A stretch of 64,000 bases of DNA from Spirochaetia bacterium (lineage in GTDB: Bacteria > Spirochaetota > Spirochaetia > DSM-2461), in the NCBI GenBank assembly GCA_963668315.1, contig OY764216.1, positions 4,608,001 to 4,672,000 of the forward strand, in the 5' to 3' direction. The translations under genes and the position numbers were made by a program. Below, in pieces: positions 20,982 through 41,123 of this stretch. The notes below the pieces were generated by a model. The model worked only from the letters and a program-made list of their open reading frames with translations. It made no database searches and was not told the origin of the DNA. The first letter of the stretch is position 1, and each line of letters begins with the position of its first letter.

Positions 20982-21075
20982 ATATAGTACTATTTCCGGG
21001 ATTCATCCTTTCCAATCAAATTACACCAAGACTCCAGAATCATGATATAATATGCTATCTATAGTAGTAGAATAA

Positions 21076-22255: not shown

Positions 22256-22501
22256 GATTTAACAGGAATTTGACATTAAACGAGAGCCTTCCGATCTACA
22301 TACTCCTGATATTCATATCTCAAAAAGAAACATATTATTGTCTATATTTTTTCTAAAGAAAAAGCCTATAATCTCCATTAAGAACTCTTGCCAGGGATAT
22401 TGTCTTTGAAGATTCTTGCTTCATTCCATCTAATGATCGTATTTTTCCTCCCTGATGGTAGGCTGACGATCCATTTCTATCTACCCTGATGTGATAAGTA
22501 C

Positions 22502-22921: not shown

Positions 22922-23114
22922 AGTTTTATACTCCTTATTCTATTCTATATAAACAATTAAAAGTCGTAAAAACCTCATAAAGTATCATTATATAATATTC
23001 TATCCCGTATGAGGTTTTACAATATAGAGAGTTTATCTTACGAATCTATACTTACTCTAAAGGGAATTACGATTATACTCCCTTTATCTAGCAAAGATCC
23101 TAAAAAAGCTATAA

Positions 23115-24026
23115 CTATTCAGATTTCCATGGTACTCTTTCATTCAATTCTTTCAAATTGGATTCATTAAATGGAAACTCCCCCCTCGACCTCTTTGCCA
23201 GATTCTCTTTATCACTTGAATGAAACGAAGATGAAAACTTCTGGCTACGATTAGGAAGATTAGGATCGGTATGAGGCCTTTCCTTCCATTTCTCAGAACG
23301 TAACCAACTAATGGCATTTGGAATAAATTTCCGATTATCCTTTTGCCATTCTTCAGTAGTCATCCAATCAGAAACAAGAGCAATATGATCTTCAAGAACT
23401 GGCAGATTATGAATATTCAAAAACAAAGCTAAGGTCTCATTCTTGTCACACTTTCTTGGATAGTGTTCCCACCATTTCTCAAAATCCAGTTTTTTCTGTT
23501 TCAGGTCTTCATTCTCTTCTAGTTTAGGTTCTTCTTGTCTTTTCTCTTCTAGTCTAGCTGTGACAGTCTGTGACTCGTCATTGACTGTCACAGACATGTC
23601 ATAGACAGCCTCATACGCATCAAACCAATTAGGGGTAGCCAGCCTACCAATCTTTTTCTGCTCTGCCACTTGTGCCTTATAGACTTTAATCAGCTTTTGG
23701 AGTTTCTTTGAACGCGTCGCTGATGTAAGAAGGAATTTATAGATCTTATGACAGGAAATCTCTCCTGATTGTTCAAGGGTTAATAGATCTTGATTACACA
23801 TGAAATGAATCATCTGTTCAACTCGCGAAGTATTACCATTGTAAAATTGGGCAATATCTTCACATGTTTCCTCCAACGTCGGTAGAGGGCTATAATCTTC
23901 TATAGCCTCTGTAATCGACTCAATAATCAAACAGTATAATCCATAGCCTTCAATACCATATCTTTCGAATACTCTTCTGATTTTTGGATCATGCCTCATT
24001 GTACCCAGGTGCTGAAAATATCTCAT
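23115..24026 (-). CDS. Phage-type replication initiator-like protein
   Basis: HDPKIRRVFERYGIEGYGLYCLIIE N-terminus; FEKWWEHYPRK...FIPNAISWL C-terminus; internal short repeats. Confidence 0.7.
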   Translation of the reverse strand: MRYFQHLGTMRHDPKIRRVFERYGIEGYGLYCLIIESITEAIEDYSPLPTLEETCEDIAQFYNGNTSRVEQMIHFMCNQDLLTLEQSGEISCHKIYKFLLTSATRSKKLQKLIKVYKAQVAEQKKIGRLATPNWFDAYEAVYDMSVTVNDESQTVTARLEEKRQEEPKLEENEDLKQKKLDFEKWWEHYPRKCDKNETLALFLNIHNLPVLEDHIALVSDWMTTEEWQKDNRKFIPNAISWLRSEKWKERPHTDPNLPNRSQKFSSSFHSSDKENLAKRSRGEFPFNESNLKELNERVPWKSE

Positions 24027-24217
24027 CTGGCCCCCCTAATCCTACTATCCTGAAAATCCGCTGTGATCTTTTGGGATTTAGTTCCAGACCACTCAATCCT
24101 AACCAGTCTAGAATCATGCAGGTGGACTTTAAGTGAAATACAGCCATACGCTGGAATAGTCTGAAATACCTCCAAAAAATCTGGAGCAATTTCTTCTAGA
24201 AGTTCTTTAGCTTTCAT
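24023..24217 (-). CDS. Small hypothetical protein
   Basis: 64 aa, overlaps both neighbours in the xis-rep operon. Confidence 0.55.
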   Translation of the reverse strand: MKAKELLEEIAPDFLEVFQTIPAYGCISLKVHLHDSRLVRIEWSGTKSQKITADFQDSRIRGAR

Positions 24218-24404
24218 CTATAACCTCCCAACCATCATATGACCCATTAAGAAGATTATCTATAAATGACTCGGGAACACGTATCTGCTTCCCAATTCTT
24301 ACGTGTGGAATCGCATCATTTGCGATATGACGTATGAATGTTGAATAACTGATACCTAATCTATCAGTAACTTCCGTAGGTGTTAAAAATTTATCATTAC
24401 CCAT
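24207..24404 (-). CDS. Excisionase-like HTH protein
   Basis: FLTPTEVTDRLGISYSTF...IPHVRIGKQIRVP. Confidence 0.8.
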   Translation of the reverse strand: MGNDKFLTPTEVTDRLGISYSTFIRHIANDAIPHVRIGKQIRVPESFIDNLLNGSYDGWEVIDES

Positions 24405-24524
24405 CTTTCTACTCCAATAATTATTATTGATTGCAATCATTGGGTAAATGATAGAATTCGTATCAATTTACGAATACGTGTAAAAGTAGTGGAAAATGGG
24501 TAAAAAACAGGGAGGAAGAAGCTA

Positions 24525-25053
24525 CGAGCCACCCCGTGTTTTCCTGAGACACAATTATTTGAGAGAATAGTTTCATGAAAAAGCGGATCATCTATATTCT
24601 TCCATATAAAAGTTGGCTGATGGGTTTTACAATCTATGAATACAGATTCAACCTTGGATGCCTTGGAACAAGCTATTTTTGCTCGATCCCAAGAGAAAAA
24701 TCTTATCCATCAAAGTTACAGAGGTATTCTGTATTTATTAATTAGGTACTCAGAACGCCAATCTGAATCAGGATTTTCTCCATCAGTTAGTAGCGTTAGT
24801 CATATAATAATGCCACGGACGAGACAATCAATGGTCGTTTTTAAGCGGAGATGATTTGGAAAAGAAGTTCTTGGAAAACAATGGAAGACTCAGAATTAGC
24901 CATTCTGGAATAGGAGGACTGGTTCAAGAATCACAGACTTTTGGTGCCAATCGTAGATAATCTTCCCTAAGAATACGAAATGCTGTAAAATAAAAGAGTT
25001 AAAGGTTCGTCTGAATTAGTAGGACTCAAATAAAAAAATCTCTGGGCGGTTCA
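24525..25053 (+). mobile_element. Internally deleted IS3-family remnant with 3-bp CTA target duplication
   Basis: Ends CGAGCCACCCC / GGGCGGTTCA; degenerate DALEQAIFAR...LIHQSYRG..Y..IRYSER integrase core; CTA at 24522-24524 and 25054-25056. Confidence 0.8.
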
Positions 25054-26037
25054 CTATTTCAAGGGGAAACATTTGTGCCAATTATCTTCAAGAGACCGTT
25101 CAGAAAGAACCTCCCCTGTCTTTTTAATTAAATTGGGAAAATGTACTTTGGGGTTTAAATCGGGAGAATCTTTATAATGCATCTGAACGAATTTAATTAT
25201 TGAACATGTTAATTGATATCGACCATCGCCGATCCTCTTAATATATTGCTCTTTTTCTAGATTTTTCAAAACTGATAATACTTGTTCGTATGGATCATGA
25301 ATTAAATCATCCTTTAATAAAATCTCATTCAGAAGGATTTCATAGTCTACCAAATGTAACAGATGCAAATTGAATAGAAACTCCTGATTCTCATTATACT
25401 TGAAAGCCGTTCTCTCTTCTTTAAGTACAATAAGAATTCTAGGGATAATATCCGCAAAACTAAGAAGTTCACAAGCATTTACAAAATCAAGAACAGAAGT
25501 TTCCTCTGACATTCGAATAACCTGTTCTATAACACGAGGATTAATATCCTCTGATTCATTTCGATATAGAATAGAAGCAAGTAAGATTAAAAATCTCTTT
25601 GCATCATTAACATTTCTTATAATGATTTTCTTTTTTTGTTCATGGCTCAATACATCATATCTATTTTTTAAATAAAGCTCATATTCTATCTGTTCATCCG
25701 TAAAGAACTTTACATTTTCCTCAATATACTCAAACTGTTGATCCAACTCGCGCTTAAGAAGCTCTTGGGATGGATCAAGTTGATCTAGTTCCTCTGATAT
25801 GTTCTTCTGCTCTATTTGAGTATGTTGTAAAAGCTGATTTTCAAAAAATGTTTCTTGATAAAAAGAGAATAATGCATCATCCTCAAGATTTTGAGGAATG
25901 GGTAAAAATAAATCCGCATATTTCGCCCGGAAGAAAAGATCATTGGTTTGACCGCTTCTTATAGCATATTCAACATTTTTATAAATCTCAGTTCTTAGTG
26001 ATCCATCATCCGGATAATATTTATGTATTCTAATCAT
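25054..26037 (-). CDS. Hypothetical protein
   Basis: 327-aa ORF coupled to the XRE gene; no motif recognised. Confidence 0.65.
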   Translation of the reverse strand: MIRIHKYYPDDGSLRTEIYKNVEYAIRSGQTNDLFFRAKYADLFLPIPQNLEDDALFSFYQETFFENQLLQHTQIEQKNISEELDQLDPSQELLKRELDQQFEYIEENVKFFTDEQIEYELYLKNRYDVLSHEQKKKIIIRNVNDAKRFLILLASILYRNESEDINPRVIEQVIRMSEETSVLDFVNACELLSFADIIPRILIVLKEERTAFKYNENQEFLFNLHLLHLVDYEILLNEILLKDDLIHDPYEQVLSVLKNLEKEQYIKRIGDGRYQLTCSIIKFVQMHYKDSPDLNPKVHFPNLIKKTGEVLSERSLEDNWHKCFPLK

Positions 26038-26251
26038 TCAATGCTTCTTCTATTGATCTAACTATCTCCCACGCAGGACATCCAATACCACGTGCTATTC
26101 TTATAATTGTTTTCAATGAAGGCATCTTCTTACCGGTTTCTATTTCGGATAAAAAAGCTTTACTCATATCTATACGATTTATGAGTTCATCTTGGGATAA
26201 TCCGGATTTTTTTCTATAGTTACTTATTACTGAACCTATAACTTCCTTCAT
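26030..26251 (-). CDS. XRE-family HTH regulator
   Basis: RKKSGLSQDEL...SKAFLSEIETGKKMPSLKTIIRIA. Confidence 0.88.
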   Translation of the reverse strand: MKEVIGSVISNYRKKSGLSQDELINRIDMSKAFLSEIETGKKMPSLKTIIRIARGIGCPAWEIVRSIEEALND

Positions 26252-26677
26252 TGGAGATAATTATATTAGTTTACGCCTTACAATATGATACGCTATTGAA
26301 TATCATCAATAGTCATATGGATGTATAGGTTACATTAAAGACCTTCTTCCCTGTAACTATTCTCATAGTAGAAAAAAAAAGCCTGCCTTCTCCACCAAGC
26401 GTTACAACGAGTTTTATCAGTATTTCTTATCTACTAAAGCAGCCTTGTCATAGGCATTGTCAAACAAATCGTAATTATTAAAGCCAAATGAGTTATACCA
26501 TACGTATTATTATGAACATAGATTTCTAATATAATAATCTATTACGCTAAAGCGTTATACCAAGTATACCTAATCGTCAATACTATATAATAATGAATTA
26601 AGATAGTTGGAATTATCAATTAATGATGATATTTTAAAAACATTGAATCTTTATTTTTTTTACCTGGAGATATATTT

Positions 26678-26989
26678 ATGGAACAAAATTCGGTTTGTCG
26701 TACAAAACAGTTCTGGGGGATTTGTTTTAATGATAGAAACACAAATTCACCGTATGAGGGAGATTATCTACTGGGAGAAGCTATTTTAAGATTTCACAAT
26801 GGATATCTACATAGCCGTTTAGAAAACGGAAATATAATCCCGGCAGTTGAGTTTCCAGATTTCCATATGGAATACTACTATGAAGGAAAACTACACCGTG
26901 AAGAAAAAGCCGCGATCAGCTCAGATTATGGTAGTATTAAGGAATACTGGGAAAATGGAGAACTTATCAAGGTAGAAACATTTGAATAA
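26678..26989 (+). CDS. Hypothetical protein with LHR..PA/EYWENG-type repeats
   Basis: GGAG RBS; NGYLH...PAVE, EGKLHREEKAAI...KEYWENG. Confidence 0.55.
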   Translation: MEQNSVCRTKQFWGICFNDRNTNSPYEGDYLLGEAILRFHNGYLHSRLENGNIIPAVEFPDFHMEYYYEGKLHREEKAAISSDYGSIKEYWENGELIKVETFE

Positions 26990-27036
26990 GTATTATTTTT
27001 CTGTCTATCTTCAATAGTTGCTTTCTAACAGTCTAT

Positions 27037-28496: not shown

Positions 28497-28705
28497 AATT
28501 ATACTCCTCTCATTGCAATCTAACCCCTCTTTACTGAATCGCAATAATTGTAAAATTATGATAAAAAAGAATAAAAACTTATGTTGGCATCTAGGAGGAG
28601 AACCTGTTTAAGCTTTACTTCACTAAGTATAAAATGTTTAATAACATTAATCAATTATTTGAGGGTAAGAAAGAAAATTGTTCAAACTAGACTTCCCCGA
28701 TTTCT

Positions 28706-28813
28706 ATACAACGTAAGATTTCTATCCTGCAGAACCCAAATAAAAAAAGTCCCCCTGGTAGCATCCATATCGTCAAAACATCCACCGCTTCTGCGGGATA
28801 GAACTCGTTGTAC
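28706..28813 (-). other. Atypical attC-like hairpin terminating the recombinase/IS91-like unit
   Basis: Minus strand GTACAAC GAG TTCTATCCCGCAGAA ... TTCTGCAGGATAGAA ATCTTAC GTTGTAT; asymmetric spacer. Confidence 0.6.
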
Positions 28814-29099
28814 TCAACCGACTGTATGAAAAAGCTTTCTCCATGGGTCTTGTATTGAATTTCCAGCTTACATGAAAAGTATAATACTGTTCCCTTAATT
28901 AAGAAATAGTGATTTTCCCACTTACCGTAAGAAATAATCCCTATTCCCCTTTGGGAAGAATTATAAAAAGGGCTTTCCCGGGGAAAGTGAGGCATAAAAG
29001 AACAAAGCTCCCCCACGAATCCTATGAACAGGACACGGGTGAGAATAATCGTTCGTATTTTTCCATCAACAATTATCACAGGCCGAGGGCCTGGTCACT

Positions 29100-30259
29100 T
29101 CAGGATACCCTGCAAGGATTTGGCTCAGGACCATGAATACTCCGCCTATTTCCATACAATCCCATGAAGATCATCTCTTTTCCGCATTTGCAACAGACTT
29201 TTTTCTCAAAGTCCCAAGTCTCGACATCCTTATGCGACTCATACTCATTCGCTGGATTTTCTCCTGGTTCATGGGAAAAATCGGGGAGTTCCGTTATGAA
29301 TTGCCGCACTTGCCTTAGGGATTCCCGCCTGTTATGATTACTCATATAACCGAAATATCGTATCTTTCTCATCCCCTTGGGCAAAAGATGAAGAAGAAAA
29401 CGATCAATGAATTCCTCCAAAGGGAGAACCATCCTTTTTCTCTTGTGGCCGGAGGCTCTGTCAATCCATGTGAAATTGACTCTGTCTCCATCTGTGGCAA
29501 CAATCCGCTGCTCGCTGATTCCCACACGGTGTGTATATCGGCCCAGGTACTTAACAACCTGAGCAGGATTTCCAAAAGGCTTTTTGGCATAAACCACAAA
29601 GTTTTTCCGCGCGGCACTCTGTAGATTTTTCTCATAGAGAACCCTGTCGCCAAAGAGAGCCCCCTTATCACAGTATTTTCTGAGTGAACTCAGCAGCTTC
29701 CCCCGAAAAACGACAGACAATTTCTTCACCGGCACCAGATATTTGGGATTCCCCTCAATCCAGTGAGATTTATCAGGAGAGAGGCCTCCCCGGGTAGAAT
29801 ACAGTGCACATGAGGATGATAAAGCAGTTTCTGCGTCCATGTATGAAGAACTGATAATCCCCCTACACCGGCCCCGAGATTCTCCGGATTCTGACATACC
29901 TCAAGAAGTGTCTTATGGGCACTATGAAAAAGAGCTTTGTAGAATAGTTGATGATTCGCACCAGCCAAGTGAAGCAGTTCATGGGGAACCGTAAAGACCA
30001 CATGAAAATAGGGAACCGGCAATAATTCTTCCAGCCGCTTGTCCACCCACCGGACACGGGACGCTCCCTGGCACAAGGGGCAGTGCCTGTCCCGGCAGGA
30101 ATTGTAATGAGTTTCTTTATGCCCGCATTCGCAAACCAAGGTATTACCACCCATCCGATGGGTATGGCAATCCGAAATATGTCCCAGAACCACCCGTTCT
30201 CTCCTGTTCAAACCGGGAAGAGTTTTCCCTATCTCTGCTATTTCTCCCAATTTACTCAT
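29100..30259 (-). pseudogene. IS91-family (Y2 HUH) transposase, 1-nt frameshift at 29788-29791
   Basis: Zn-binding NSCRDRHCPLCQ, YFHVVFTVP, HPHVHCI (HUH), YLGRY (Y2), RKIRYFG; one G missing from PGGG codons. Confidence 0.88.
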
Positions 30260-31115
30260 GAACCGCTTCCCCTCCCTTCAAAGAATCAAGAGGATTGCGG
30301 ACGGTTCTTATATGATGGGCGGCAATATGCAAATATTTTTCCGTCGTCTGGATATCGGAATGGCCTAGAAGAGCCTGTATCGTTCGCAAATCAGTTCCGG
30401 CCTCAAGAAGGTGCGTGGCAAAGGAGTGACGAAAAGTATGGGGAGTCACATGTCTCTCCAATCCTGCTCTCACGGTAAGATTTTGGATGAATCTCTGAAT
30501 GGTAGAGGTATGCATCTTCACATGCCCCCCTCTGCCGGGAAACAGCCATTCATCGGGTTTGACACGGCAGGACCGATAATAAGCCCGTAAAATCTCCAGC
30601 AAATCGGCGCTTAACTGGACTTTTCTATCCTTACCGCCTTTCCCCTGGCGGACATGAAGCAGCATATTCTTACTGTCGATATCGGTGATTTTTAGATTAA
30701 CAAGTTCGCCTATTCTCAAACCGGTACTGTAAAGAGTGGCGACAATAGCATAGTGGCGGGGATTTTTCCGGACTTCAGAAAGCAACAGGGATACTTCCTT
30801 TTTGTTCATTACCTCGGGTAGTTTTTTTCTCATCTTCTGAAAAGGAATATGATTCACCGGCCAATCGACGCCTCTTACTTTCTGAAAATAAAACCGGAGC
30901 GCACAGACCATTTGGTTAAAATGGGACCAGGAAACCTTTTCCTGGTGCACCAGATAATATTGCCATTCATGAATATCTTCGAGTGTTACCAAATCAATGG
31001 GCTTCTCTAGATGGGTCAGATACTTTTTCAGTACGGCGACATAGGTTGATATCGTTTTTTCTGCATAATTGCGGATCACCATGGCTTTGCGCATGGCTTC
31101 TAATTCTTGTGTCAT
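30252..31115 (-). CDS. Tyrosine recombinase (IS91-associated, Xer/IntI-related, lacks IntI-specific insertion)
   Basis: RNYAEKTISTY SAM-like N-terminus; TGLRIGE, GKGGKDR, HTFRHSFATHLLEAG, LLGH, TEKY. Confidence 0.9.
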   Translation of the reverse strand: MTQELEAMRKAMVIRNYAEKTISTYVAVLKKYLTHLEKPIDLVTLEDIHEWQYYLVHQEKVSWSHFNQMVCALRFYFQKVRGVDWPVNHIPFQKMRKKLPEVMNKKEVSLLLSEVRKNPRHYAIVATLYSTGLRIGELVNLKITDIDSKNMLLHVRQGKGGKDRKVQLSADLLEILRAYYRSCRVKPDEWLFPGRGGHVKMHTSTIQRFIQNLTVRAGLERHVTPHTFRHSFATHLLEAGTDLRTIQALLGHSDIQTTEKYLHIAAHHIRTVRNPLDSLKGGEAVHE

Positions 31116-31228
31116 ATAACACCTCCGCCTCTATTGTGAAAAGAGTGACGGATTTATATAACCGGGGAATCTTGATAGGTGGAGAAAAGTGTGATGGTGT
31201 TGAATCCACCGCTGGGTACAGCGGTTTA

Positions 31229-31336
31229 GTTCAACGCCCGCATAACCTGTTTTCCGTACATGGCAGAAATCCTGCCTGCGAAGCAGAAAAGCAGGATTTG
31301 TGCCATAGGAAAATCAGGTTCATGCGATTGTTATAC
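31229..31336 (-). other. attC site
   Basis: R'' GTATAAC, L'' GCATGAAC (extra G) versus L' GTTATGC, second bulge CTGATTTTCC/GGAAAACAG, long stem, R' GTTGAAC; 108 bp. Confidence 0.85.
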
Positions 31337-31523
31337 GGTCCGTTCTTTTTCCCACATCTTTCTCGCTCCCGCCGGAACACAGGAAATGGGTGAAGGTGAT
31401 TCTTATTGATCTATTTTTCATTCTGCTCCATTACCATACTTGAAAGCAAGTCCGAAAACTGATCTGGATGCTTTTCCTTGATTCATATTAAATTGGAATT
31501 GGCAGTAGTCTTCATCTCTGCTG

Positions 31524-32966
31524 CTACTGGTCAAAAAGTAAGCAAGTTGGCGTATAGTTACAGGCACCGCTCCACTCATAACACTGGACAGGTGCTGTCG
31601 CATTTAGCCTATGTCCTAAGAAGAGGGCCAGATGGGAGGGCCCCGCGAAAAATAAGTGTATCTTATCTATAGAAGTCTTGGAAAGCTCAGTGGTAATTGC
31701 CAGCTTCAACTGATTCACCACAACATTTGTATGTTCTGGTGATAAAATAGGAGATGAGCTATTTAGGCTAAGAATTGAAGCTTCTCCAAGGTTTAGCGAA
31801 GGTAGAGCGGGCTTTACATTTTCCTTTATATCACGTGCGATCCCTATAACAATAACCAGATCGGAGCTTATACCATTGTCTTTTATGATAGTGAACTTGT
31901 ATGGTGGTGTTTTTTCGTTTGGAAATGAATCTGTAGACCAGATTTCATTTCGATATATGAGATCAATCGCAAATCCAGAAACTGCAGAGAATATAGACCC
32001 TATTGCTAAGGAAGTAGAGAGACGACGGCTACCAGATAAAGAGATTCTACGTGATTTACGATTCTCCTTAATCCAACTGATTGTATCTACTAATTCACCA
32101 ATTATATGTGCGTTCCAATGCTCAGGGGTAGGATATTCTCTTTTTTCGCCTCCGAAAAATGAATTCCATTGAAAACACAAGTCAGTACTATTGCAGATCT
32201 CTGTATTCGTAGAAGTATGCAGTGATATTGATTGTTCTGGTGGGCATTTTTTCTTCAGTACATCATTAATTGAAGCCTCTAAATCTATACGAAATACAGG
32301 TTCATTAAGCTTTTTGATTCGTGATTCAAATTCTGAGAATAATAAACCGATCTCTCTACTTGTTAGATCTTCAAATCTTGGTAGGTTCTCGTCAAGCCCT
32401 TGGCGGAAGAGCGCTTCTGCATCATTGCGAGCCAAGCTGAAATTTGGAAGTATTCTAACATGATCAAAAAGAAAACGAGCATCTTGCACTGAGTGTCCGG
32501 TATTTGCTACACGTTGTTCAAACTCTTTGTAAGTATTATTAATTACCGATGACTGGGAACCATAAAAATCATATGGTTCTCTCACTCTTCGGAGTGCATG
32601 TTCTATAGATTCTATCTCCGGTGAAATCCCAACAGAAGCTAATGTGAATGATCTATAAGTACTTGGACATCCTGCATGAATTTCTTTGAATCGATTAATC
32701 TCGTCCCAGAACTCAGCAGGAGTTACTCGATGATCTTTTGCCTCCCAAAGATCAATAATCATTCCTTGACCCGGAATGAAAAACTTGATTTCAATATCAC
32801 CGATTAGTTCACTGGCAATTGCAGTAAAACCTTCTTGTGCAAGCCATTTGGGAAGTTGGGATAAAAGTACTCCATCCTGAAAAGTAAAACCCTTCTGAGC
32901 TATTTCACCTCCCGTAGATTGAGGTTCAAGCAGTGATGGAGTTGGTTTAGAATTTTTCTTTGTCAT
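31524..32966 (-). CDS. cap4: CBASS Cap4-type effector (endonuclease + SAVED)
   Basis: SLLEPQSTGGEIAQKGFTFQD...DIEI...EAKDH...EFWDEINRFK as recalled for Cap4 nucleases; SAVED tail IHLFFAGPSHLALFLGHRLN...YEW...Y. Confidence 0.88.
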   Translation of the reverse strand: MTKKNSKPTPSLLEPQSTGGEIAQKGFTFQDGVLLSQLPKWLAQEGFTAIASELIGDIEIKFFIPGQGMIIDLWEAKDHRVTPAEFWDEINRFKEIHAGCPSTYRSFTLASVGISPEIESIEHALRRVREPYDFYGSQSSVINNTYKEFEQRVANTGHSVQDARFLFDHVRILPNFSLARNDAEALFRQGLDENLPRFEDLTSREIGLLFSEFESRIKKLNEPVFRIDLEASINDVLKKKCPPEQSISLHTSTNTEICNSTDLCFQWNSFFGGEKREYPTPEHWNAHIIGELVDTISWIKENRKSRRISLSGSRRLSTSLAIGSIFSAVSGFAIDLIYRNEIWSTDSFPNEKTPPYKFTIIKDNGISSDLVIVIGIARDIKENVKPALPSLNLGEASILSLNSSSPILSPEHTNVVVNQLKLAITTELSKTSIDKIHLFFAGPSHLALFLGHRLNATAPVQCYEWSGACNYTPTCLLFDQ

Positions 32967-33435
32967 ATATGTCGTTCTCCAATACAGTTTCTATCGGTTC
33001 ATATGATCCCTCTGGGAAAAAAATATATGAAGCTGCATCAAAGTTGATTCCAGATTGTTTTACAAGTAGCAGCATTACGAAATTCGCTCCAACAGATTTA
33101 TCTCCAACGATTCTAAACATTGTATTAACATCTGTGATGCTTGGATTTAAACTGAAAGCAGGGTGGGAATGCCATTCTCCTAAGTAATTGTACCGTTTAT
33201 ATTCAAAATTTGTTCTACGGAAAAAACTCTGGAGAGTAGATGCCAAACCTTTTAAAACACGTATAAACGATGTAAATGTACCTGTTTGGTGTTGGATAGT
33301 TATCTCCACCACACGGAATGTATTTTCAGCGACATGTTCTCCCATCAAAATACCGCCTATTTCTTTATCCCCAGCTATTTTGAGAGAATCATGCAGTCGA
33401 TTTATAATCTTACTCGGCAGAAGAATTTTGATCAT
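32947..33435 (-). CDS. cap3: CBASS Cap3 JAB/Mov34 peptidase
   Basis: EIGGILMG, YLGEWHSHP...PSITD. Confidence 0.9.
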   Translation of the reverse strand: MIKILLPSKIINRLHDSLKIAGDKEIGGILMGEHVAENTFRVVEITIQHQTGTFTSFIRVLKGLASTLQSFFRRTNFEYKRYNYLGEWHSHPAFSLNPSITDVNTMFRIVGDKSVGANFVMLLLVKQSGINFDAASYIFFPEGSYEPIETVLENDIYDKEKF

Positions 33436-35197
33436 TCTTTTTCTCCAATAGTTTACCAATAAACTCAACAGTATCTTTTTTTATTTGTTCTGTTGGCTGT
33501 TTAGATCCTATGTGTGTCTCCTTTAGGTGTTTAGTATCAATAGGAATATTATGAAATGGTTGAGAAAATACCCAGGATCTTTTTAATCCGATTAAGTATA
33601 GCGAGTATGGGTAGGTTGACGGTTCTCGATCCAAGACTGTGTCTATAGCCAAATTAGTTGCATTGGATGCTATTACATTAACATCTGCATCCGAGGCTAT
33701 TATTACATGTCCTTCAGTATTTTCTAAAGCGTAAGATGTTGTTGCGACTCCCTCCTCAAAAGGATGTTCCTCTGTATATCGCAAGTAAGCTGCTCGTATA
33801 ACTTGAGGATCAGGGTCCTTCTTCGGGCGACTTCTTGCTATCAATCCACCAATTCCTCCAGCAAATACTTCTGCCCATATAAGAGGTACCTTATTTTGCC
33901 GGAAAACTCCTGACATTATATTGAAAACCTGAGATGAGGCAGTCATATCCAATATCATGTCGCATTGAGATAACTTATCGAGTACTCCATTTAATACAGC
34001 AGGATTCTCTTGACCTGTAACATTTACCTTGGAGATCTCTATTTTCGCATCATACACGATACTGTCGATGGCTTTGGCAACAGCAGCAGCTTTATGCTCT
34101 CCAACGCTGTTCCAATCAAGTTCATGGCGGCATAAGTTTTCAGGCATTAGAATGTCATCATCAACTAAAAAAAAATCTTTCACACCCATACGGGCAACAG
34201 ACACAGCGACTTTTGATCCAAGAGAACCAAGACCAATTATTCCAATTCGTTTCTCGGCTAAGGTTTGCAATTCAACTTGTGTACGGGGTAGGTTTGAATT
34301 ATTATCAGGTATTATGTTGCCGGTATGCCAAAGTTCATCTTCTTTATAGGACGTGAAAACATGGAGAACATGATCTTGATCAGTAATAATAATTACTCCA
34401 GGAGGTTTTTCGAGTCCATATTTCGGTATGGATTCTGACCAAGAAAGAGATATATCCTTATAGCCAGCTGCTTTAAGAGCCTCTTCCATCTCACTCAACG
34501 TCGAAAGCTTAGTTATGGAAGAATGTTTAAGTTCTGTGGTGAAAATAAGACCCTGACTGAACCATACATTTCTCTTATTACGGAGTGTGTTGGGAATCTC
34601 TGCATCTTTCCATTCATCAAAAGAAAGTGGTGAAACCTCATGAATAAGGAGTGTATAGGCATCTCTTTGATACTGATTTGAGTATCGAATCGTTCCTGAT
34701 GTTAGATTTGGAAGTGATCCAACATACTGTTGTAGTTTATTGCCTATATAAATTCGTTCAATAGTCTTTCGGAGTTTCTGACCCATGGTAAGATAATGTC
34801 GTGATGGAGCAATCACAGAAGTCTCTGATCCGAGAGGATTCTCTATTTCAAGAAGTCTGAATACGCTTTCCAGAACTTGTGCTCCAGTGACCGTAGAAAT
34901 CCATGTATCAGGGCCCCATTCGAGACAAAGTGAACCATCTCTGTATTGATGTGATGACCATGATTCTGAAGGATTTGCCGGTCGAACTATGGGGGGCGCA
35001 AAAGGAAAATGATTCGGATAAGTCATCAGAATATTGTACGTGATGCCATGGGCTTTTACAGCTGCATTAATAGCGAGTCCGTCACTTGATAATGTCCACT
35101 CAGTGCCGATGAGCCAACTATTGTTATGATGAAGCTGAGTAATGGCCGTTCGTTCCTCGTTCAATCGATCCGGATTAGATAAAAACCAGAAATCCAT
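33410..35197 (-). CDS. cap2: CBASS Cap2 E2-E1 (ThiF) fusion
   Basis: E2-like YPNHFPFAPP...HQY..GSLCL; E1 IGLGSLGS...DDD...ENLCRH. Confidence 0.9.
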   Translation of the reverse strand: MDFWFLSNPDRLNEERTAITQLHHNNSWLIGTEWTLSSDGLAINAAVKAHGITYNILMTYPNHFPFAPPIVRPANPSESWSSHQYRDGSLCLEWGPDTWISTVTGAQVLESVFRLLEIENPLGSETSVIAPSRHYLTMGQKLRKTIERIYIGNKLQQYVGSLPNLTSGTIRYSNQYQRDAYTLLIHEVSPLSFDEWKDAEIPNTLRNKRNVWFSQGLIFTTELKHSSITKLSTLSEMEEALKAAGYKDISLSWSESIPKYGLEKPPGVIIITDQDHVLHVFTSYKEDELWHTGNIIPDNNSNLPRTQVELQTLAEKRIGIIGLGSLGSKVAVSVARMGVKDFFLVDDDILMPENLCRHELDWNSVGEHKAAAVAKAIDSIVYDAKIEISKVNVTGQENPAVLNGVLDKLSQCDMILDMTASSQVFNIMSGVFRQNKVPLIWAEVFAGGIGGLIARSRPKKDPDPQVIRAAYLRYTEEHPFEEGVATTSYALENTEGHVIIASDADVNVIASNATNLAIDTVLDREPSTYPYSLYLIGLKRSWVFSQPFHNIPIDTKHLKETHIGSKQPTEQIKKDTVEFIGKLLEKKNDQNSSAE

Positions 35198-36201
35198 TAT
35201 GCAAATTTCCCCGGTCGTTTTGGTGTAATTGGTTTATTAGGAAAAGACAGGCCGTCAGAGATGACCGCTGCAGATAGAAGACCCTCATCTCTTGAATCAG
35301 ATTTTCCAGATGTTGGAAATCGATCTCCAAATAGAATTCGCCATTTACCAAGAGCAGTCTGATCATCCTGCTCTTCACAAGCTTCTCGGCCAAGTTCTCC
35401 ATGATTTTTTGCCTTATTATAGAATCCCTTGAAGGCATCAAATGACATCCCGTTTGTAATTGAATTTCCTGGTACTGCCGGATCTTCAATAAATGGAACG
35501 ATTCCACTATCAATTGCCCATGAATATTTCTCAACAAATCTTTCGAGTGTTCCCAGGAAAAGTTCTACATATTGAGTTTCATTAAGATCGGCACACTCTG
35601 ATGCAATAACTTCAATAACAAATCCCTTAGGCTTTTTATTTACTGTAGGATTCTCTCTACGCCACCACTTTAGAAGTTTAACCAGAGGTTTGAATACCCC
35701 ATTACTGGATTTATTAACATCCGTAGTCCATAGAGTATGGCCAGGAGGATTTGTAACAAGCCACTCTCCAAGTTTTCGATCAGGAATGTATAATGTACCT
35801 TCTATTCCATTGGGGGCAATTATCGGAACTACATCCATGTCAGTTTTCGATGTTTCTATACCGACAGACCGTGCTTGCCGGCGTATATTGGAATACTCTT
35901 TAGCTAAGGTTTTATAAAGCAATTCAATAACATCACCTGGTTTGTCTGAAAGTGTATGATTTGTAACAACTATTATATCAACGTCGGGGCGATCGGTATC
36001 TCCATTTTTCATATGTGGTCTTATGGCTGTATCACGTTTATAAGAACCTGAAAGAAATGTTGCGGTATGATACTCTTTAAAATCTTCATCAGCTTGAAGA
36101 AAATTCCTTAGTTTAGTGTGAGCTGAGCTTGCATTTGCCTTTGTTGTTGAACTAGGTTCTATATCTCTTAGAAAGTCCTTGAACTGTGATTGAATTGACA
36201 T
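35197..36201 (-). CDS. CD-NTase (cGAS/DncV-like cyclic oligonucleotide synthase)
   Basis: [14 protein letters not shown]...DVDII, MDVVP, TNP, KLLKWWR; tail [11 protein letters not shown] typical of Cap2 substrates. Confidence 0.9.
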
Positions 36202-36248
36202 TTAATAGCCCCCTTCGATACAATTTTACACTTTTTTAGATTTTATCC

Positions 36249-36355
36249 GTATAACGCCGTTTTGAGCTGCTGGCTTTGTCCCGAAGGGTTGGCGTAGTTT
36301 TTGAGAACTCAAAAACTATGACAAAAAAACAGACTGCTCCAAAACCTTGTTATGT
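36249..36355 (-). other. attC site
   Basis: R'' ACATAAC contains the stop codon of the 81-aa ORF; L'' TTTTGGAGC (extra G) versus L' GCTCAAAA; inner stem TAGTTTTTGAG/CTCAAAAACTA; R' GTTATAC; 107 bp. Confidence 0.87.
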
Positions 36356-36595
36356 GTCTCTTTCCTTCTTTAATATTTCTAATTCTATTAATCGCATTTT
36401 ATATGCTAAATATGAGATACTAATCATTGATATATTTGTCGTAAAAATTATAGAAACATATAGAATTAACTGATTTACAGTTAGGTTTTGAGTGATATTA
36501 TTACCAAAGATTATTGTTAGGGCTAATATTGTAAGAATAGCGATTATGAAGATTATCTCATAAACCCAGAATATTTTCACTATTTTTTCTTTCAC
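36350..36595 (-). CDS. Small two-TM membrane protein (last gene of cassette 1)
   Basis: Two hydrophobic helices; GAGGAGG upstream of GTG; TAA inside attC R''. Confidence 0.65.
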   Translation of the reverse strand: MKEKIVKIFWVYEIIFIIAILTILALTIIFGNNITQNLTVNQLILYVSIIFTTNISMISISYLAYKMRLIELEILKKERDT

Positions 36596-37166
36596 GCTTT
36601 AACCCTCCTCTAACTGTTTCTTGTTTAACTTTTTCCCACTCTGCCTTTAGTATTTTTTTGATATTCTTCCTTAATCTTTCAATATATTTATCATCAATTT
36701 CTAGATAATATTTTCCTTGGTAAATTCTTTTTAACTTTTCTAAATCTTTGATCAAATTAATGTCATCATCATCATTCAATCTTAAAATGGATAATTCGAT
36801 TTTTGTCACTATTTCATAATTTTTTGATTCTCTTAGCTTTTTTTCATGAGATATATCACGAACAAAGTCGTTATATTCATAAAGATCTTCAGAGCTAGGA
36901 TCATCACCAGGATAACCGACCTCTTTGTCATCAATTTCAACTTTTTGACAAAATCTCAAAGTACTTGTATGTGATAATATTTGAGAGAAATCATTTCTGA
37001 GTGTATCAATCCATAAAATTCTTTGATTTGTAACTGTTTCGATGTATTTTTGTGTCTTTATATTTTTTCTAGTATATACGACTGTCAATAAAGAAATTAC
37101 TACTGCTAAAAATGCAACTATAGTTGATACGTTATCAAGTATGAAATTTTTCAAAGAAACCTCCAA
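36558..37166 (-). CDS. Hypothetical protein with N-terminal TM helix
   Basis: TIVAFLAVVISLLTVVY followed by a charged helical domain. Confidence 0.7.
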   Translation of the reverse strand: MEVSLKNFILDNVSTIVAFLAVVISLLTVVYTRKNIKTQKYIETVTNQRILWIDTLRNDFSQILSHTSTLRFCQKVEIDDKEVGYPGDDPSSEDLYEYNDFVRDISHEKKLRESKNYEIVTKIELSILRLNDDDDINLIKDLEKLKRIYQGKYYLEIDDKYIERLRKNIKKILKAEWEKVKQETVRGGLKRERKNSENILGL

Positions 37167-37167
37167 T

Positions 37168-38823
37168 TTAAAGTTTTTTTCCAGTTATTTTTAAAAATTC
37201 ATCTTCCGAAATATACTTATTGGGATGAACATCAGATGAAAGGTTAAATACTAGTTTTCTTAGCTTTTCGTACTTTGGATTTGTATCAAAATCATCACGT
37301 AAAATATGCTGATAAACATTGTAAGGTTTGTCTTTCTCAATACTTTCTCCTAAGTAATAATCCTCAAAATCAGTAATATGTACTATTGGATATACAAGAC
37401 CAGATGATTTTTGACATTCTTCAAGAATTCTCTTATTTATCGTCCACATAGGATTTCTCTTCCCTGCTTTTGTTGTCTCTGTATCAGAATCATGAAGAGC
37501 TATTGCTTTTGATTTGAATTTATTTATGATCTTAATGTAGGTAGGAATATTTGCTTTCCCTCTGCAATTTAATATATGAAAACCATCAGTATCATATTTA
37601 TTACAAAGAATTTTTAGAGCCGTTTCTTCTGTTTCTCCTTCTATCAGTACTATGTTTTCATAAAAGAAAAACTCATTTGTTAACGGATTACAAAGATTAA
37701 TCATTTTCAAATTATTCTTTTCATCTGTTGAAAATTCTGATTCTTCGGTTTGAAAGTATCTAATACTTTCTTGATTATTAGAAACCTTAATTATCGTTGT
37801 ATGATCTTTACTGAGGTCAATAAACACAGGGCTATGTGTTGTACATATAATTTGCCATCCAGCAACTTCAGATAAAGCATAGAGCGCTTCTCTCGCAGAC
37901 CTTACAACAGATGGATGTAGATTTACTTCAGGTTCATCTAATAATAAAACTTTAGGATCGCTGTTAGTAACATTCATTCTTCCTTTTTTAAGGATACCCT
38001 TACTTGCATAAGCTTTTATGGCTGACCATAGGAATGCTCTTTGAATACCTGATCCTTGATTACACAAAGGAGCTTTCATATTATTTGTAGTAAATATAAA
38101 TTGACTACCTTCCTTTATTGACTTTTCAGGTTCAAATTTTCCAACATTTGTGTCAAATATTACGCCTGTATCTGGGAAAGAAGATTGCATCGATTCTATT
38201 AATGAATCATTTATTTCATTAAGATCTGATGATATCTCTTTTTCAATTTCTTTACCCAATACTCTTATCTGATCGACAATTTTGGTTATTTTAGTTTTAT
38301 CCTTAGCAATGCTTTTAGATACTTCTTTCGCAATTAAATCTTTAACAATTGTTTCTAATTTATCTGTTGTATCAAATGGACTAATTCTTATTGGAACTGG
38401 CAGTTTACTCTTTAAAATTGAATCCCAACCTCCAGCTCCTCCTGGTTTCCATGTGTTGGTTTTATTGCTGAAACTAAATTTCTTTCCTTTTTCATCAGGA
38501 GCATTCCACTCAAATTGGAATTTCGAGCAATTACCATATTCTTGATCATCAGCGATAAACCATTCCTGACCTATTGATTTAATATCGTCTTCTGTAATGT
38601 CATCAAAAATGCCGGTTATTCTTACAGGTTTTGAAATATCTTGATCATTGAAATCAGTTAGTTTTAATGCACTACCTAATGAGAAATAAGCTTCATATGC
38701 ATCCAATACAGTCGATTTACAACAATTATTTGGTCCAATTAGCACAACAATTTCATTAATTAATATCTTTATTGGATTTTTAATTCCTTTGAAATTCTCA
38801 ATTTCTAAAGCTTTTAATTTCAT
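37168..38823 (-). CDS. OLD-family ABC-ATPase + TOPRIM nuclease
   Basis: IENFKGI, GPNNCCKST, QGSGIQR, LLLDEPEVNLHP, TTHSP, LIEGETE, HDSD; AGGAG RBS. Confidence 0.88.
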   Translation of the reverse strand: MKLKALEIENFKGIKNPIKILINEIVVLIGPNNCCKSTVLDAYEAYFSLGSALKLTDFNDQDISKPVRITGIFDDITEDDIKSIGQEWFIADDQEYGNCSKFQFEWNAPDEKGKKFSFSNKTNTWKPGGAGGWDSILKSKLPVPIRISPFDTTDKLETIVKDLIAKEVSKSIAKDKTKITKIVDQIRVLGKEIEKEISSDLNEINDSLIESMQSSFPDTGVIFDTNVGKFEPEKSIKEGSQFIFTTNNMKAPLCNQGSGIQRAFLWSAIKAYASKGILKKGRMNVTNSDPKVLLLDEPEVNLHPSVVRSAREALYALSEVAGWQIICTTHSPVFIDLSKDHTTIIKVSNNQESIRYFQTEESEFSTDEKNNLKMINLCNPLTNEFFFYENIVLIEGETEETALKILCNKYDTDGFHILNCRGKANIPTYIKIINKFKSKAIALHDSDTETTKAGKRNPMWTINKRILEECQKSSGLVYPIVHITDFEDYYLGESIEKDKPYNVYQHILRDDFDTNPKYEKLRKLVFNLSSDVHPNKYISEDEFLKITGKKL

Positions 38824-38848
38824 ATGAACTCCTGAACATTTATTATAC

Positions 38849-38885
38849 ACATAACAATACAGTTATACTGTATCAATACAATACT
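38849..38885 (-). other. attI-like simple recombination site
   Basis: Minus strand GTATTGTATTGATACA GTATAAC TGTATT GTTATGT; GTTATGTGT is complementary to ACACATAAC at the end of cassette 1. Confidence 0.6.
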
Positions 38886-39130: not shown

Positions 39131-39739
39131 CTATATTCCGGATAACCTTCGCCTTATCCGCCTCACCTCATTATCATCATCCTCAACCCAGACACATACT
39201 AAACGCTTCCCCTCCCCTATCTTTTCCCTGGCTTCAGTCAGAGAAAACCCCTTAATCTTATTCTCCCCAATGTACAAAGACGCACCTCGTACCGTCATGA
39301 TTCCGTCAACGGGTATAACAGGATATACGTTTAGCTCATCACGCTTGCGGATATTGTAATCTTTTAACTGTCTCACACTCATGGATTTAAGGCGCTTAAA
39401 ATACATGGGATCACGATCAGCAATAGTAGAATCGATCATCTGCACTTTACTAAGATTGTCCGAAAGTTTGATATTTTCACCCTTCAATTCCAATTGATAA
39501 CGTAAAAATAGCTCGCCCGCATGGGCAAGTCTCAGACTCTCCCGATACTTCAAATGAGTCCTCTCCATCCTAATGTAATCTTTCCATGACTTGGCTACTT
39601 GTAAGTACAACCCTTCCATCTTAATCGTCGCCAAGGCCACAGCCAGATTAGCCATGGCCTTCTTAACGCCATACTCTACGGATCTCATGAAACCCTCGAT
39701 ATCATAAAGGGTGGTACCCTCAGGAAAAAACTCATTCAT
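39131..39739 (-). CDS. Hypothetical protein translationally coupled to the integrase
   Basis: ATGA overlap with integrase stop; 202 aa. Confidence 0.7.
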   Translation of the reverse strand: MNEFFPEGTTLYDIEGFMRSVEYGVKKAMANLAVALATIKMEGLYLQVAKSWKDYIRMERTHLKYRESLRLAHAGELFLRYQLELKGENIKLSDNLSKVQMIDSTIADRDPMYFKRLKSMSVRQLKDYNIRKRDELNVYPVIPVDGIMTVRGASLYIGENKIKGFSLTEAREKIGEGKRLVCVWVEDDDNEVRRIRRRLSGI

Positions 39740-40893
39740 ACCACACCCCTTTCCAGCTTCTGCCTGGCATCAGTGAAATTGATGACCTGTCCCGCATGAG
39801 AATACCTATCCATCATATTACTGCTCTTATGTCCCGCCAAAGCCATAATCGCCAGATCAGGCAAACCGGCCATTCGTGCCAAAGTTACAAAGCTATGACG
39901 AAGCCCATGGAAAGTAAGGTTGCGTTTCTTCCGCTGTTCCTCATCAATCCCCAGATTGCGTAAAAGACGAATGAATCCCTTCCTTATAATAGTGTTACTA
40001 AAAGGTTCATCAACAGACTCTTTAGAAAAATGGACAAAATCATTCTCACCCGTTCGGGGAGAAATCCTTTTCAAATTCAGAAGGATAGGAATAAGAGAAC
40101 TATGAAGTATAGTCTGTCGATTTGATCCAGCCTTACATCCCTTAAGTCCCTCCGAATCCACCCAATTATGACGAATATTCAGCAGTTGCCGATCAAAGTC
40201 TATATCCCCCCACTGCAACCCCCGTACTTCTCCTCTACGAAGCCCACAGAAAGCTGCAAGAAGTATAGCCGACTTAACCCTCAAATCATCCTCTTGAAGC
40301 CCCAGAAGGGCTTCAGTTTCGTCTACAGTAAGTACTCCCCTCTCCTTCTCCTGGTATCGAATCGGAGAGATTTTCAATAGTGGATTCTCAGGAATCTCAT
40401 CCCGACTATAAGCGAAGGAATAAGCAGTTTTCAAAGTCTGAATAAGTGTATTAATCCGTCTCTTCCCTACACCCTTCTCAACCAGCCAGAGCTTCCAGTC
40501 ATTCACCATACCGGCGGTCAGCTCACTGATTCTCAGCTTCTTAAAGGGAGGATAGGTTTCGATATAATATTTGATACCCGATTGATTCACCCTTAGGTAA
40601 TCAGCGGAAAGAGGACGTCCTTCCACCAGGCTGCGATACTTACAGTACCGACTCCCTTCCTGCCAGAAATCCTTTAGAAATGTGATTAGATAGCTGTAAT
40701 CCTCAAAGGACACTTCCTCGGCCATAACAAGAGCTTTATTGTAAGCTTCCTGCCAGCGGCCCTTCTTTCCTTTGACCTCTACCCCTGTGGAACGGGTAGC
40801 CTCATAACGATTGGTAGAAGGGTTCAGAAACCTCACATACCATACAGAACCTGCCTTCAAATTCCTTATAAACAAGGAAACCGGAGCCCGCAT
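39736..40893 (-). CDS. Phage/island-type tyrosine integrase
   Basis: GLRRGE, FHGLRHSF, AGHKS, DRYSH; AGGAGG RBS before ATG 40893; adjacent to tRNA 3' end. Confidence 0.92.
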   Translation of the reverse strand: MRAPVSLFIRNLKAGSVWYVRFLNPSTNRYEATRSTGVEVKGKKGRWQEAYNKALVMAEEVSFEDYSYLITFLKDFWQEGSRYCKYRSLVEGRPLSADYLRVNQSGIKYYIETYPPFKKLRISELTAGMVNDWKLWLVEKGVGKRRINTLIQTLKTAYSFAYSRDEIPENPLLKISPIRYQEKERGVLTVDETEALLGLQEDDLRVKSAILLAAFCGLRRGEVRGLQWGDIDFDRQLLNIRHNWVDSEGLKGCKAGSNRQTILHSSLIPILLNLKRISPRTGENDFVHFSKESVDEPFSNTIIRKGFIRLLRNLGIDEEQRKKRNLTFHGLRHSFVTLARMAGLPDLAIMALAGHKSSNMMDRYSHAGQVINFTDARQKLERGVV

Positions 40894-40914
40894 AAAACCT
40901 CCTTTCTTTCGAAA

Positions 40915-40937
40915 ACGTGTAACACGACGTGTAACAC
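40915..40937. repeat. Direct repeat ACGTGTAACAC x2, candidate integrase arm-type sites
   Basis: 40915-40925 and 40927-40937, between tRNA and integrase start. Confidence 0.6.
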
Positions 40938-41049
40938 CTTGGGTTTTATTACGATCTCCGGTTTTCCGGTCGAAAGTAATAATCAAATTGACTACTACCA
41001 AGTTCTTACTATACATAAAATTATATACAAGTAATGAACTTTTGTAAGT

Positions 41050-41123
41050 TGGGCCCACAAGGACTTGAACCTGGGACATCTTGATTATGAGTCAAGCGCT
41101 CTAACCAACTGAGCTATAGGCCC
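41050..41123 (-). tRNA. tRNA with CAT anticodon (probably Ile2, otherwise Met); CCA not encoded
   Basis: GGGCCTATAGCTCAGTTGGTTAGAGCGCTTGACTCATAATCAAGATGTCCCAGGTTCAAGTCCTTGTGGGCCCA folds as a cloverleaf. Confidence 0.95.

Follow-up and report, generated by a model that had tools for sequence, protein, structure and literature searches.

Can a complete, multi-gene immune system be carried as a single integron cassette? The question is raised by a locus on the minus strand of a Spirochaetia genome, within a window of 64,000 nucleotides (the whole stretch of DNA that was analysed), where a four-gene operon of the cyclic-oligonucleotide-based type known as type II CBASS lies between two attC sites. 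The features concerned are as follows.

36249..36355, minus strand: attC_A (inverse core ACATAAC, core GTTATAC; crossover after G 36255)
35197..36201, minus strand: CD-NTase, CdnD-like (334 aa)
33410..35197, minus strand: Cap2, E2-E1 (595 aa)
32947..33468, minus strand: Cap3 JAB isopeptidase (alternative start at 33435, where an ATG is the probable start)
31524..32966, minus strand: Cap4 endonuclease-SAVED effector (480 aa)
31411..31521, minus strand: remnant of an AAA_13 (RloC-like) ATPase gene, namely its decayed 3' end (36 codons with one internal stop)
31229..31336, minus strand: attC_B (inverse core GTATAAC, core GTTGAAC; crossover after G 31235)
31235..36254, minus strand: CBASS cassette (5,020 bp, 39% GC)

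The 5,020-bp unit is occupied by four intact genes, each of which overlaps the next, and the preliminary description of a complete four-gene type II CBASS is borne out by PADLOC (Cyclase 3e-137, E1-E2 1e-180, JAB 3e-55, endonuclease effector 1e-87) and by Pfam (SMODS in the CD-NTase, UQ_con and ThiF in Cap2, Prok-JAB in Cap3, Cap4_nuclease and SAVED in Cap4). The same four components make up the type II CBASS of Bacillus cereus (CdnD, Cap2, Cap3, Cap4; PDB 9SA4; PMC11153139, PMC13424991), whose cyclase matches that of the host with an E-value of 8e-133. Residues S51-G-S-Y54, P72-DVDI, T150, H155 and the C-terminal alanine of the host cyclase are found at equal positions in B. cereus CdnD, every specificity residue of which is kept, and the SGSY motif together with the histidine at Lid 2 predicts cA3 as the likely product. 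The NCBIfam cyclase_a and cyclase_b subfamilies were ruled out for this cyclase (scores of 98 and 111 vs. a cut-off of 200). In Cap2, the catalytic cysteine C91 is present in 13 of 13 homologues and carries the same number in B. cereus Cap2, and C412, conserved in 12 of 13, would correspond to B. cereus C403, an equivalence drawn from conservation only. Cap3 contains E36 and the HxH..S..D motif (HSH..S..D). Cap4 exceeds the cut-off of NF051438 (206 bits vs. 160) and matches PDB 6VM5 (E 1e-54) as well as 6VM6. As far as sequence can tell, the operon thus has a CD-NTase with an intact active site, an E2+E1 Cap2, a JAB Cap3 and a nucleotide-sensing effector, as expected of a type II CBASS, which in itself is ordinary. 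Unlike the B. cereus CBASS, however, that of the host is bounded by attC sites; its product, its conjugation to PspA and the protection that it would confer are predicted by likeness.

Both bounding sites have the attributes of genuine attC sites. Their R boxes are paired in the predicted fold (pairing probability 0.94 for attC_A, 0.62 for attC_B, and 0.97 for the attC of the predicted circle), with z-scores of -5.1 (attC_A) and -8.0 (attC_B) against 200 mononucleotide shuffles, and both can be aligned with a further 15 attC sites from the genome, those of the intI array among them. The closing attC has an AAC/GTT R box, an L box with an extrahelical base and a folded bottom strand; the G/TT core is complementary to the unit's own inverse core, the genes lie in attC orientation, and transposases and insertion sequences are absent inside the unit. 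GTTATAC, the core after attC_A, is the exact complement (7/7) of GTATAAC, the inverse core of attC_B, and since the cores are complementary in this register, the unit ends at 36254 and 31235, which confirms the coordinates first proposed. Such a 7/7 match is seen in 21 of 26 adjacent attC pairs of the genome vs. 106 of 930 random pairs; because GTATAAC is a frequent inverse core (5 of 31), the match at attC_B has a chance background of about 1 in 6 (near 16%). The ATG of the cyclase lies 47 nt past the core of attC_A.

The claim that no attC lies inside the unit was also upheld by a covariance model, which with default filters returned only attC_A, attC_B and their antisense echoes, and with filters off gave a best inner score of 12.7 bits (E 0.78). 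Both modes were needed, because the model with filters off missed long (approximately 170-nt) attC variants that the default filters caught. As attC_A and attC_B belonged to the training set of the model, their own scores are not independent. The attC sites went undetected in a search for direct repeats. Elsewhere, a copy of attC_A (98% identical) sits in the complete integron of a relative (G432), and near-identical copies of attC_B flank unrelated genes, behind or before them, at all 11 of the relatives' sites inspected. The premise that cassettes are typically single-gene and mostly under about 1 kb has to be adjusted for this family, whose in-register cassettes have a median length of 1,374 bp and repeatedly hold several genes.

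Within a tRNA-anchored island, the other parts of which are listed below, the CBASS unit takes second place in a small array of cassettes that lacks an integrase.

41050..41123, minus strand: tRNA (CAT anticodon), integration site of the island
39736..41079, minus strand: island tyrosine integrase, not IntI (447 aa; Pfam PF00589; TIGR02249 28.8 bits)
39131..39739, minus strand: companion gene of the island integrase (202 aa)
38849..38868, minus strand: probable array landing site, putatively attG- or attI-like in function (G at 38855)
36255..38854, minus strand: first cassette (2.6 kb, three genes, 30% GC; ends set by register)
37168-38850, minus strand: OLD-family ATPase-Toprim nuclease (PADLOC Old 5.7e-82)
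28690..31234, minus strand: downstream unit (left end approximate)
30252-31115, minus strand: 287-aa tyrosine recombinase of the downstream unit (TIGR02249 198.5 bits vs. 265)
29726-30259 and 29100-29897, minus strand: frameshifted IS91-family transposase of the downstream unit

The 3' 47 bp of the tRNA are repeated approximately 125 kb off, outside the window (C1:4524001-4524047), and the island integrase and its 202-aa companion occur as a pair three further times in the genome. The landing site consists of an inverse-core-like GTATAAC, 6 nt and the core GTTATGT, which is unique within the 9 kb upstream of attC_A and is a 7/7 complement of the attC_A inverse core. It also fits a putative attG signature, in which TAA stands 7 nt ahead of the core; 19 of the 588 GTT sites of the island have this signature, and little weight is given to it. 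Besides the OLD gene, for which 37 family genomes yielded no close relative, the first cassette contains ORFs of 202 and 81 aa to which no function was assigned. No attC precedes this cassette, which begins at a GTT core, as is described for cassettes inserted at attG sites (10.1101/2022.09.11.507474), a report that gives precedent for cassettes landing outside integrons. For the downstream unit, no closing attC was found with the covariance model, and an inverted-repeat search for the far end of the IS91 unit found none; an intact, attC-closed relative of the unit exists in L032.

A group of clustered attC sites without an integrase is known as a CALIN (Cury 2016, PMC4889954), and the locus resembles one in that its cassettes are bounded by attC sites and lie apart from intI, which the genome has elsewhere. 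The published rule, however, calls for two or more attC sites with less than 4 kb between them, 4 kb being twice the largest known cassette of approximately 2 kb (PMC4889954), and the 4.9 kb between attC_A and attC_B would make of them two single sites rather than a CALIN. The host array works like a CALIN yet falls outside its operational definition, as judged by the published rule.

Which integrase could serve these sites? An adjacent intI with attI is absent from the locus, where the neighboring recombinases score 198.5 and 28.8 bits against the TIGR02249 cut-off of 265. The 287-aa recombinase was considered as the cognate IntI and rejected, being below the cut-off with a match that skips the IntI-specific region. 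The host does encode an intact IntI 1.5 Mb from the CBASS (C1:3134145-3135380; TIGR02249 361 bits vs. the cut-off of 265), at the head of an 11-site array whose first unit carries a 1,278-aa Dsr1-like defence gene. attC_A and attC_B are of the same attC family as this array, and the 5-kb unit would likely be excisable by the host's own integron integrase. The suggestion that the operon is expressed from an upstream array promoter found no support, there being no intI/attI/Pc platform at the locus, and a promoter scan returned promoter-like sites at chance level (31 vs. 31.2 expected).

From the Cap4 stop to attC_B there is a tail of 187 bp, and in it a gene remnant that the preliminary description overlooked. 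It begins 2 nt past the Cap4 stop, ends 74 bp from attC_B, and is 73% identical over 85 nt to a gene of a relative (G423). In a C-terminal profile search the remnant was the top genome-wide match (E 0.005; the next, 1.4), and its full-length homologue is Pfam AAA_13. In another relative (G406), an AAA_13 gene begins directly behind an attC. The remnant, from a gene unrelated to the CBASS, is a scar that suggests fusion of the CBASS onto the attC of an older cassette. The tail may instead be donor flank, because no attC lies behind any of the seven closest AAA_13 homologues (0/7) and that of G423, the sole neighborhood read, sits in a type I restriction locus.

Whether the unit has moved was pursued through a search for further copies. 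Only the host's own was found among 401 genomes of the phylum (1/401), matches in 60 relatives were of attC size only, the closest cyclase among 393 hits in the protein collection was 72-73% identical, the best of 14 plasmid records reached 61%, and viral contigs gave none. At homologous CBASS loci, whose cyclases are 39-77% identical to that of the cassette, no match to the attC model was found (0/55; 19 genome and 36 metagenome loci), the model being family-specific and blind to other attC families. Generic attC scans at homologous operons gave scattered candidates only, and none of 22 homologous loci passed a generic register test (two with less than 100 bp of downstream DNA), which the window itself passes. 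Two other genomes of the 37 in the family have SMODS cyclases, with no attC within approximately 1.5 kb. The BLAST comparison originally proposed for the unit thus yielded no second context, and the absence of attC at homologous operons, offered at the outset as grounds for refutation, does not refute the cassette, because the cyclases are only 39-77% identical and cassette status is acquired. What stands is a single attC-bounded cassette in structure, for whose excision only IntI is needed; movement as a unit is what we infer. Given its size and orientation, excision is probably rare. [quoted passage not shown]

The same observations could be read as a CBASS that came by another route (insertion and deletion, either illegitimate or linked to a transposase) and only happens to lie between two attC sites: a cassette in form, too long for a useful excision rate, that moves only when the island does. 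The remnant at the 3' junction, the want of a second copy and of attC at homologues, the effects of size and leading-strand-template orientation, and the insertion sequences and introns that abound in these arrays are all in keeping with it, as is the age of the structure, which must be old because the remnant has had time to decay. We nevertheless regard it as unlikely, since the cyclase starts so near the core without a foreign leader, as is typical of cassette genes, the register is perfect with both sites still well folded, no transposase or insertion sequence lies inside, and further 3-5 kb in-register defence cassettes occur in the family. Less likely still is a de novo origin, in which the CBASS abutted a broken AAA_13 gene in a donor defence island and an attC was added to the whole block, flank included. 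The attC-free AAA_13 homologues, the restriction island around that of G423 and the 74 bp between remnant stop and attC_B would suit such an origin, whereas the AAA_13 family is present as a cassette gene in G406 and tblastn detected no AAA_13 gene at any of the 55 homologous CBASS loci (weakest hit E 0.88).

A coincidental bracket, with attC_B belonging to a downstream recombinase-IS91 element that mobilizes upstream DNA, is highly improbable. That element does start exactly at the attC_B core and its recombinase is IntI-like (198 bits); yet the attC_B copies beside unrelated genes at 11 of 11 sites largely refute the idea, the L032 version has its own attC at the far end, the recombinase is under the IntI cut-off and skips the IntI-specific region, and the transposase is frameshifted. 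The reading that we favor, and consider probable, is that the unit is an integron cassette with an intact type II CBASS, in an integrase-less tRNA-island array; a distant IntI would excise or move it in trans, probably rarely, and it was likely born by joining a CBASS block to an older AAA_13-ATPase cassette's tail and attC. The CBASS could have taken the place of most of that cassette's gene, or a deletion could have fused a CBASS cassette to the next cassette; either event would leave one excisable unit. IntI would bind attC_A and attC_B through their folded bottom strands, cut each of them at G/TT and release a circle with a fully paired attC. By analogy with the 65%-identical B. cereus system, the cyclase would make cA3 upon infection, Cap2 would conjugate the cyclase's C-terminal alanine to a host protein, likely PspA (two PspA/IM30 genes are present in the host genome), Cap3 would reverse this conjugation, and cA3-bound Cap4 would degrade DNA and abort the infection.

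Anti-phage systems are similarly stored in cassettes of sedentary and mobile integrons (10.1101/2024.07.02.601686; 10.1101/2024.07.02.601719), for instance the two-ORF type I CBASS-like brc135. According to Darracq, the 783 defence systems in cassettes "never exceed 2 components" and are shortened (10.1101/2024.07.02.601686); the host unit, in contrast, has four full-length genes in 5 kb, and a relative's cassette has a three-gene Lamassu (LmuA-LmuC-LmuB) in 3.7 kb (3,741 bp). Other large in-register defence cassettes are SIR2-HerA (3,327 bp) in the same genome and, in relatives, HamAB (3,134 bp), Old with DRT8 (3,524 bp), and a methylase with an ATPase/kinase and an ORF (4,777 bp). The CBASS and Lamassu cassettes contradict the two-component ceiling of the largest published survey, which may in part be a detection artefact, as the 4.9-kb spacing exceeds IntegronFinder's 4-kb cut-off; this default distance would be a specific, checkable cause for missing the larger defence cassettes. 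For the question of how cassettes arise, the remnant at the 3' junction is of interest, as it suggests that an operon can adopt an attC that is already in place. More speculatively, and with chances that we place short of even, the integrons of this bacterial family may make a routine of packing defence systems of three and four genes at full size (type II CBASS, Lamassu, SIR2-HerA, Hachiman) into one cassette of 3-5 kb each, grafting operons onto an older cassette's attC and parking the products on tRNA islands that a single chromosomal IntI serves in trans. The two-gene ceiling would then be an artefact of a 4-kb search window and Vibrio-heavy sampling, and the remnant scar a fossil of the birth of a giant cassette.

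Four open reading frames, each overlapping the next, run on the minus strand of the window from 36201 to 31524. PADLOC and Pfam name them as a CD-NTase, an E2-E1 Cap2, a JAB Cap3 and an endonuclease-SAVED Cap4 (the last above its NCBIfam cut-off), which confirms the complete four-gene type II CBASS of the preliminary description. The top solved relative of the cyclase is PDB 9SA4 (E 8e-133), identified in the available text of PMC13424991 as B. cereus CdnD. Like CdnD, the host cyclase carries the specificity motifs SGSY (51-54) and PDVDI (72-76), T150, H155 and a C-terminal Ala at identical positions; section 6 of that paper links the serine and histidine to cA3. Immunity in B. cereus requires Cap2 C91, Cap2 C403 and the terminal Ala of the cyclase, which becomes conjugated to PspA (available text of PMC11153139). 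Host Cap2 resembles B. cereus Cap2 in keeping C91, invariant among homologues; C412 is nearly invariant. Two PspA/IM30 genes are present in the host. The Cap4 alignment with PDB 6VM5 and 6VM6 spans the nuclease motif, within which we presumptively assign the catalytic residues. Every activity step of the host system is a predicted one.

A generic attC scan of the window gives seven candidates, two of them convincing (attC_A and attC_B). The locus contains:

41050-41123, tRNA
39131-41079, integrase and ~200-aa gene module
36255-38868, first cassette with its landing site, upstream of attC_A (2.6 kb; OLD nuclease and two unknown ORFs)
36355-36249, minus strand, attC_A
36254-31235, minus strand, CBASS unit
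31336-31229, minus strand, attC_B
28690-31234, recombinase and frameshifted IS91 transposase, downstream of attC_B

The GTTATAC core at the end of attC_A exactly complements GTATAAC, the opening inverse core of attC_B; the unit between the crossovers is therefore 5,020 bp, bearing out the ~5.0 kb proposed between attC 36249 and attC 31336. Both sites can be aligned with 15 further attC sites of the host genome (5.62 Mb, one contig), and attC_A is 84% identical to a site of the host intI array and 98% identical to one in a complete integron of a relative (G432). A covariance model trained on these 17 host sites gives 37 matches in the host genome (36 distinct sites) and has matches in 25/38 family genomes; under both filter settings it finds no attC inside the CBASS unit, where the preliminary description had noticed none. 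Register at 7/7 positions is seen in 21/26 adjacent host attC pairs vs 106/930 random pairs and is thus a good marker, although the match between attC_A and attC_B raises the odds only about fivefold because its inverse core is common (5/31). R-box pairing probabilities (attC_A, 0.94; attC_B, 0.62; predicted circle, 0.97), which constrain only the three R-box pairs and differ from published pfold values, lie inside the spread seen at 21 other host sites (0.50-0.98).

At 73% over 85 nt, the 187-bp tail that separates attC_B from the Cap4 stop matches an 817-aa AAA_13 ATPase gene, which we take to be RloC-like, in a type I restriction locus of the relative G423. This tail keeps the final 36 codons of the gene, with one internal stop and an onset 2 nt past the Cap4 stop. 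In a six-frame genome search with a C-terminal profile of seven homologues, one of them itself found via the tail, the tail is the best match (E 0.005; next 1.4); the remainder of the gene was not found in the host genome. The CBASS block thus became attached to the end of an older gene, and did so in a donor island or else on an older cassette (by graft or deletion fusion). No attC lies behind any of seven close AAA_13 homologues, and a more distant one in the relative G406 begins right behind an attC; the scar hints at how the unit arose. Whichever its origin, a folded attC site now stands at each end of the CBASS unit. The recombinase-IS91 unit begins at the core of attC_B, and no closing attC was found for it in the window. 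Its recombinase falls below the IntI cut-off, an intact relative (L032:4198-6690) is closed by its own attC, and near copies of attC_B flank unrelated genes at 11/11 sites inspected; attC_B therefore closes the CBASS unit, and its assignment to the IS91 element is rejected. In L032, a homologous CBASS lies 1.3 kb beyond the recombinase-IS91 unit, without a closing attC.

No second copy of the unit, and no such CBASS operon, was found in 400 phylum genomes or 60 relatives, the nearest cyclase being 72-73% identical to that of the host. Homologous operons of other phyla retain the gene order; the covariance model finds attC at 0/55 homologous loci, and 0/22 pass the register test, which the window passes. 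The preliminary description had held such absence to count against a cassette; the absence was found, but it does not refute the reading, and it fits capture within the host lineage. By the host GC skew (minimum near 0.77 Mb, maximum near 3.59 Mb), the leading-strand template carries the bottom strands of the attC sites. With sites so oriented, a 3 kb cassette, the largest tested, recombined poorly (available text of PMC5371416), and a Vibrio cassette whose sites lie 4 kb from each other was not recovered (available text of 10.64898/2026.03.17.712381); from these orientation and size data, excision of the CBASS unit would likely be possible yet rare. The observation as a whole is confirmed, and the single excisable cassette mostly holds as structure (two folded attC sites, register, no inner attC); movement was not borne out by a second copy, and we infer that the unit is probably mobile as one piece.

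Other large cassettes occur in the host and in relatives, whose stretches were selected for having attC hits. In the host, an in-register cassette of 3,327 bp carries SIR2-HerA (L108:10463-13790). Among the matches listed, 66/105 adjacent attC pairs of the relatives are in register (median 1,374 bp), and seven in-register units exceed 3 kb, four without an IS-like ORF; three large ones rechecked with filters off have no inner attC. The CBASS unit is the biggest IS-free in-register cassette among the matches listed.

In-register cassettes above 3 kb without an IS-like ORF in relatives.
L106:13575-17490; 3,741 bp; LmuA-LmuC-LmuB (three-gene Lamassu)
L142:14547-17855; 3,134 bp; HamAB (Hachiman)
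L130:8738-12437; 3,524 bp; split Old and DRT8
L129:11478-16423; 4,777 bp; methylase, ATPase/kinase and ORF

Several other arrangements were seen. An LmuB 3' end precedes the 98% copy of attC_A in G432 (L094:13732-14115), an SspE gene interrupted by an IS precedes the first attC of another cluster (L110:2959-7156), and four near-identical 135-nt attC sites at ~400 bp spacing in G406 (L115:3027-4358) are tandem tiny-cassette copies. A 512-aa transposase-like ORF recurs ~80 nt behind an attC core (GTTGAGA; L094, L106, L137, L139, L142), and reverse-transcriptase-like ORFs (426-440 aa) lie antisense before attC sites with altered inverse core (L097, L138, L140, L141, L143); the former is likely an IS that targets attC, and the latter are likely group II introns.

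The CBASS itself is ordinary, and the size of the cassette is unusual. In the available text of Darracq et al. (10.1101/2024.07.02.601686), 783 cassette defence systems found with IntegronFinder default options have at most two components, in contrast to four here. IntegronFinder clusters attC sites that lie <4 kb from one another, a limit equal to twice the length of the largest known cassette (available text of PMC4889954), whereas attC_A and attC_B, separated by 4.9 kb, would escape its defaults. The 3.7-kb Lamassu cassette falls below this limit, so sampling must matter too. Kieffer et al. (10.1101/2024.07.02.601719; available text) describe a type I CBASS-like cassette with two ORFs; our literature searches turned up no type II CBASS cassette, and Getz et al. 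2025 or the journal version and supplementary tables of Darracq et al. could hold one.

One host IntI exceeds the TIGR02249 cut-off (C1:3134145-3135380), followed by an attC array headed by a 1,278-aa Dsr1-like gene; no IntI is found at the CBASS locus in the window. The first unit of the resident integron (L011:5521-10837; C1:3135521-3140837), in register with the attI core, holds an IS481 and this PIN/Dsr1-like defence gene. The first cassette at the CBASS locus starts at the sole GTTATGT within 9 kb, which exactly complements the inverse core of attC_A; no attC precedes this start, and its short inverse-core/6-nt/core site is a likely candidate for a natural attG- or attI-like landing site.

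The 447-aa integrase adjoining the tRNA is an island integrase, and the last 47 bp (3') of the tRNA are repeated about 125 kb away. A low-GC block (22500-26990) encodes an XRE regulator and a phage-replisome-like protein (Pfam Lin1244_N) and is a probable replication module of the island; elsewhere, the end of a HigA-like antitoxin gene is duplicated (413 bp, 94%; 13858-14270 and 21068-21480), and the two copies bracket a 7.2-kb metabolic block. The module of integrase and ~200-aa (202-aa) gene has four host copies (the window copy and C1:3446470-3448127, 4839381-4841307 and 4859702-4861314), three of them directly behind a tRNA. Three copies (window, C1:3.447 Mb and C1:4.860 Mb) are followed downstream by attC sites. 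The island offers a second transfer route for the CBASS unit, and these data suggest that integrase-module islands act as integrase-less carriers of cassettes.
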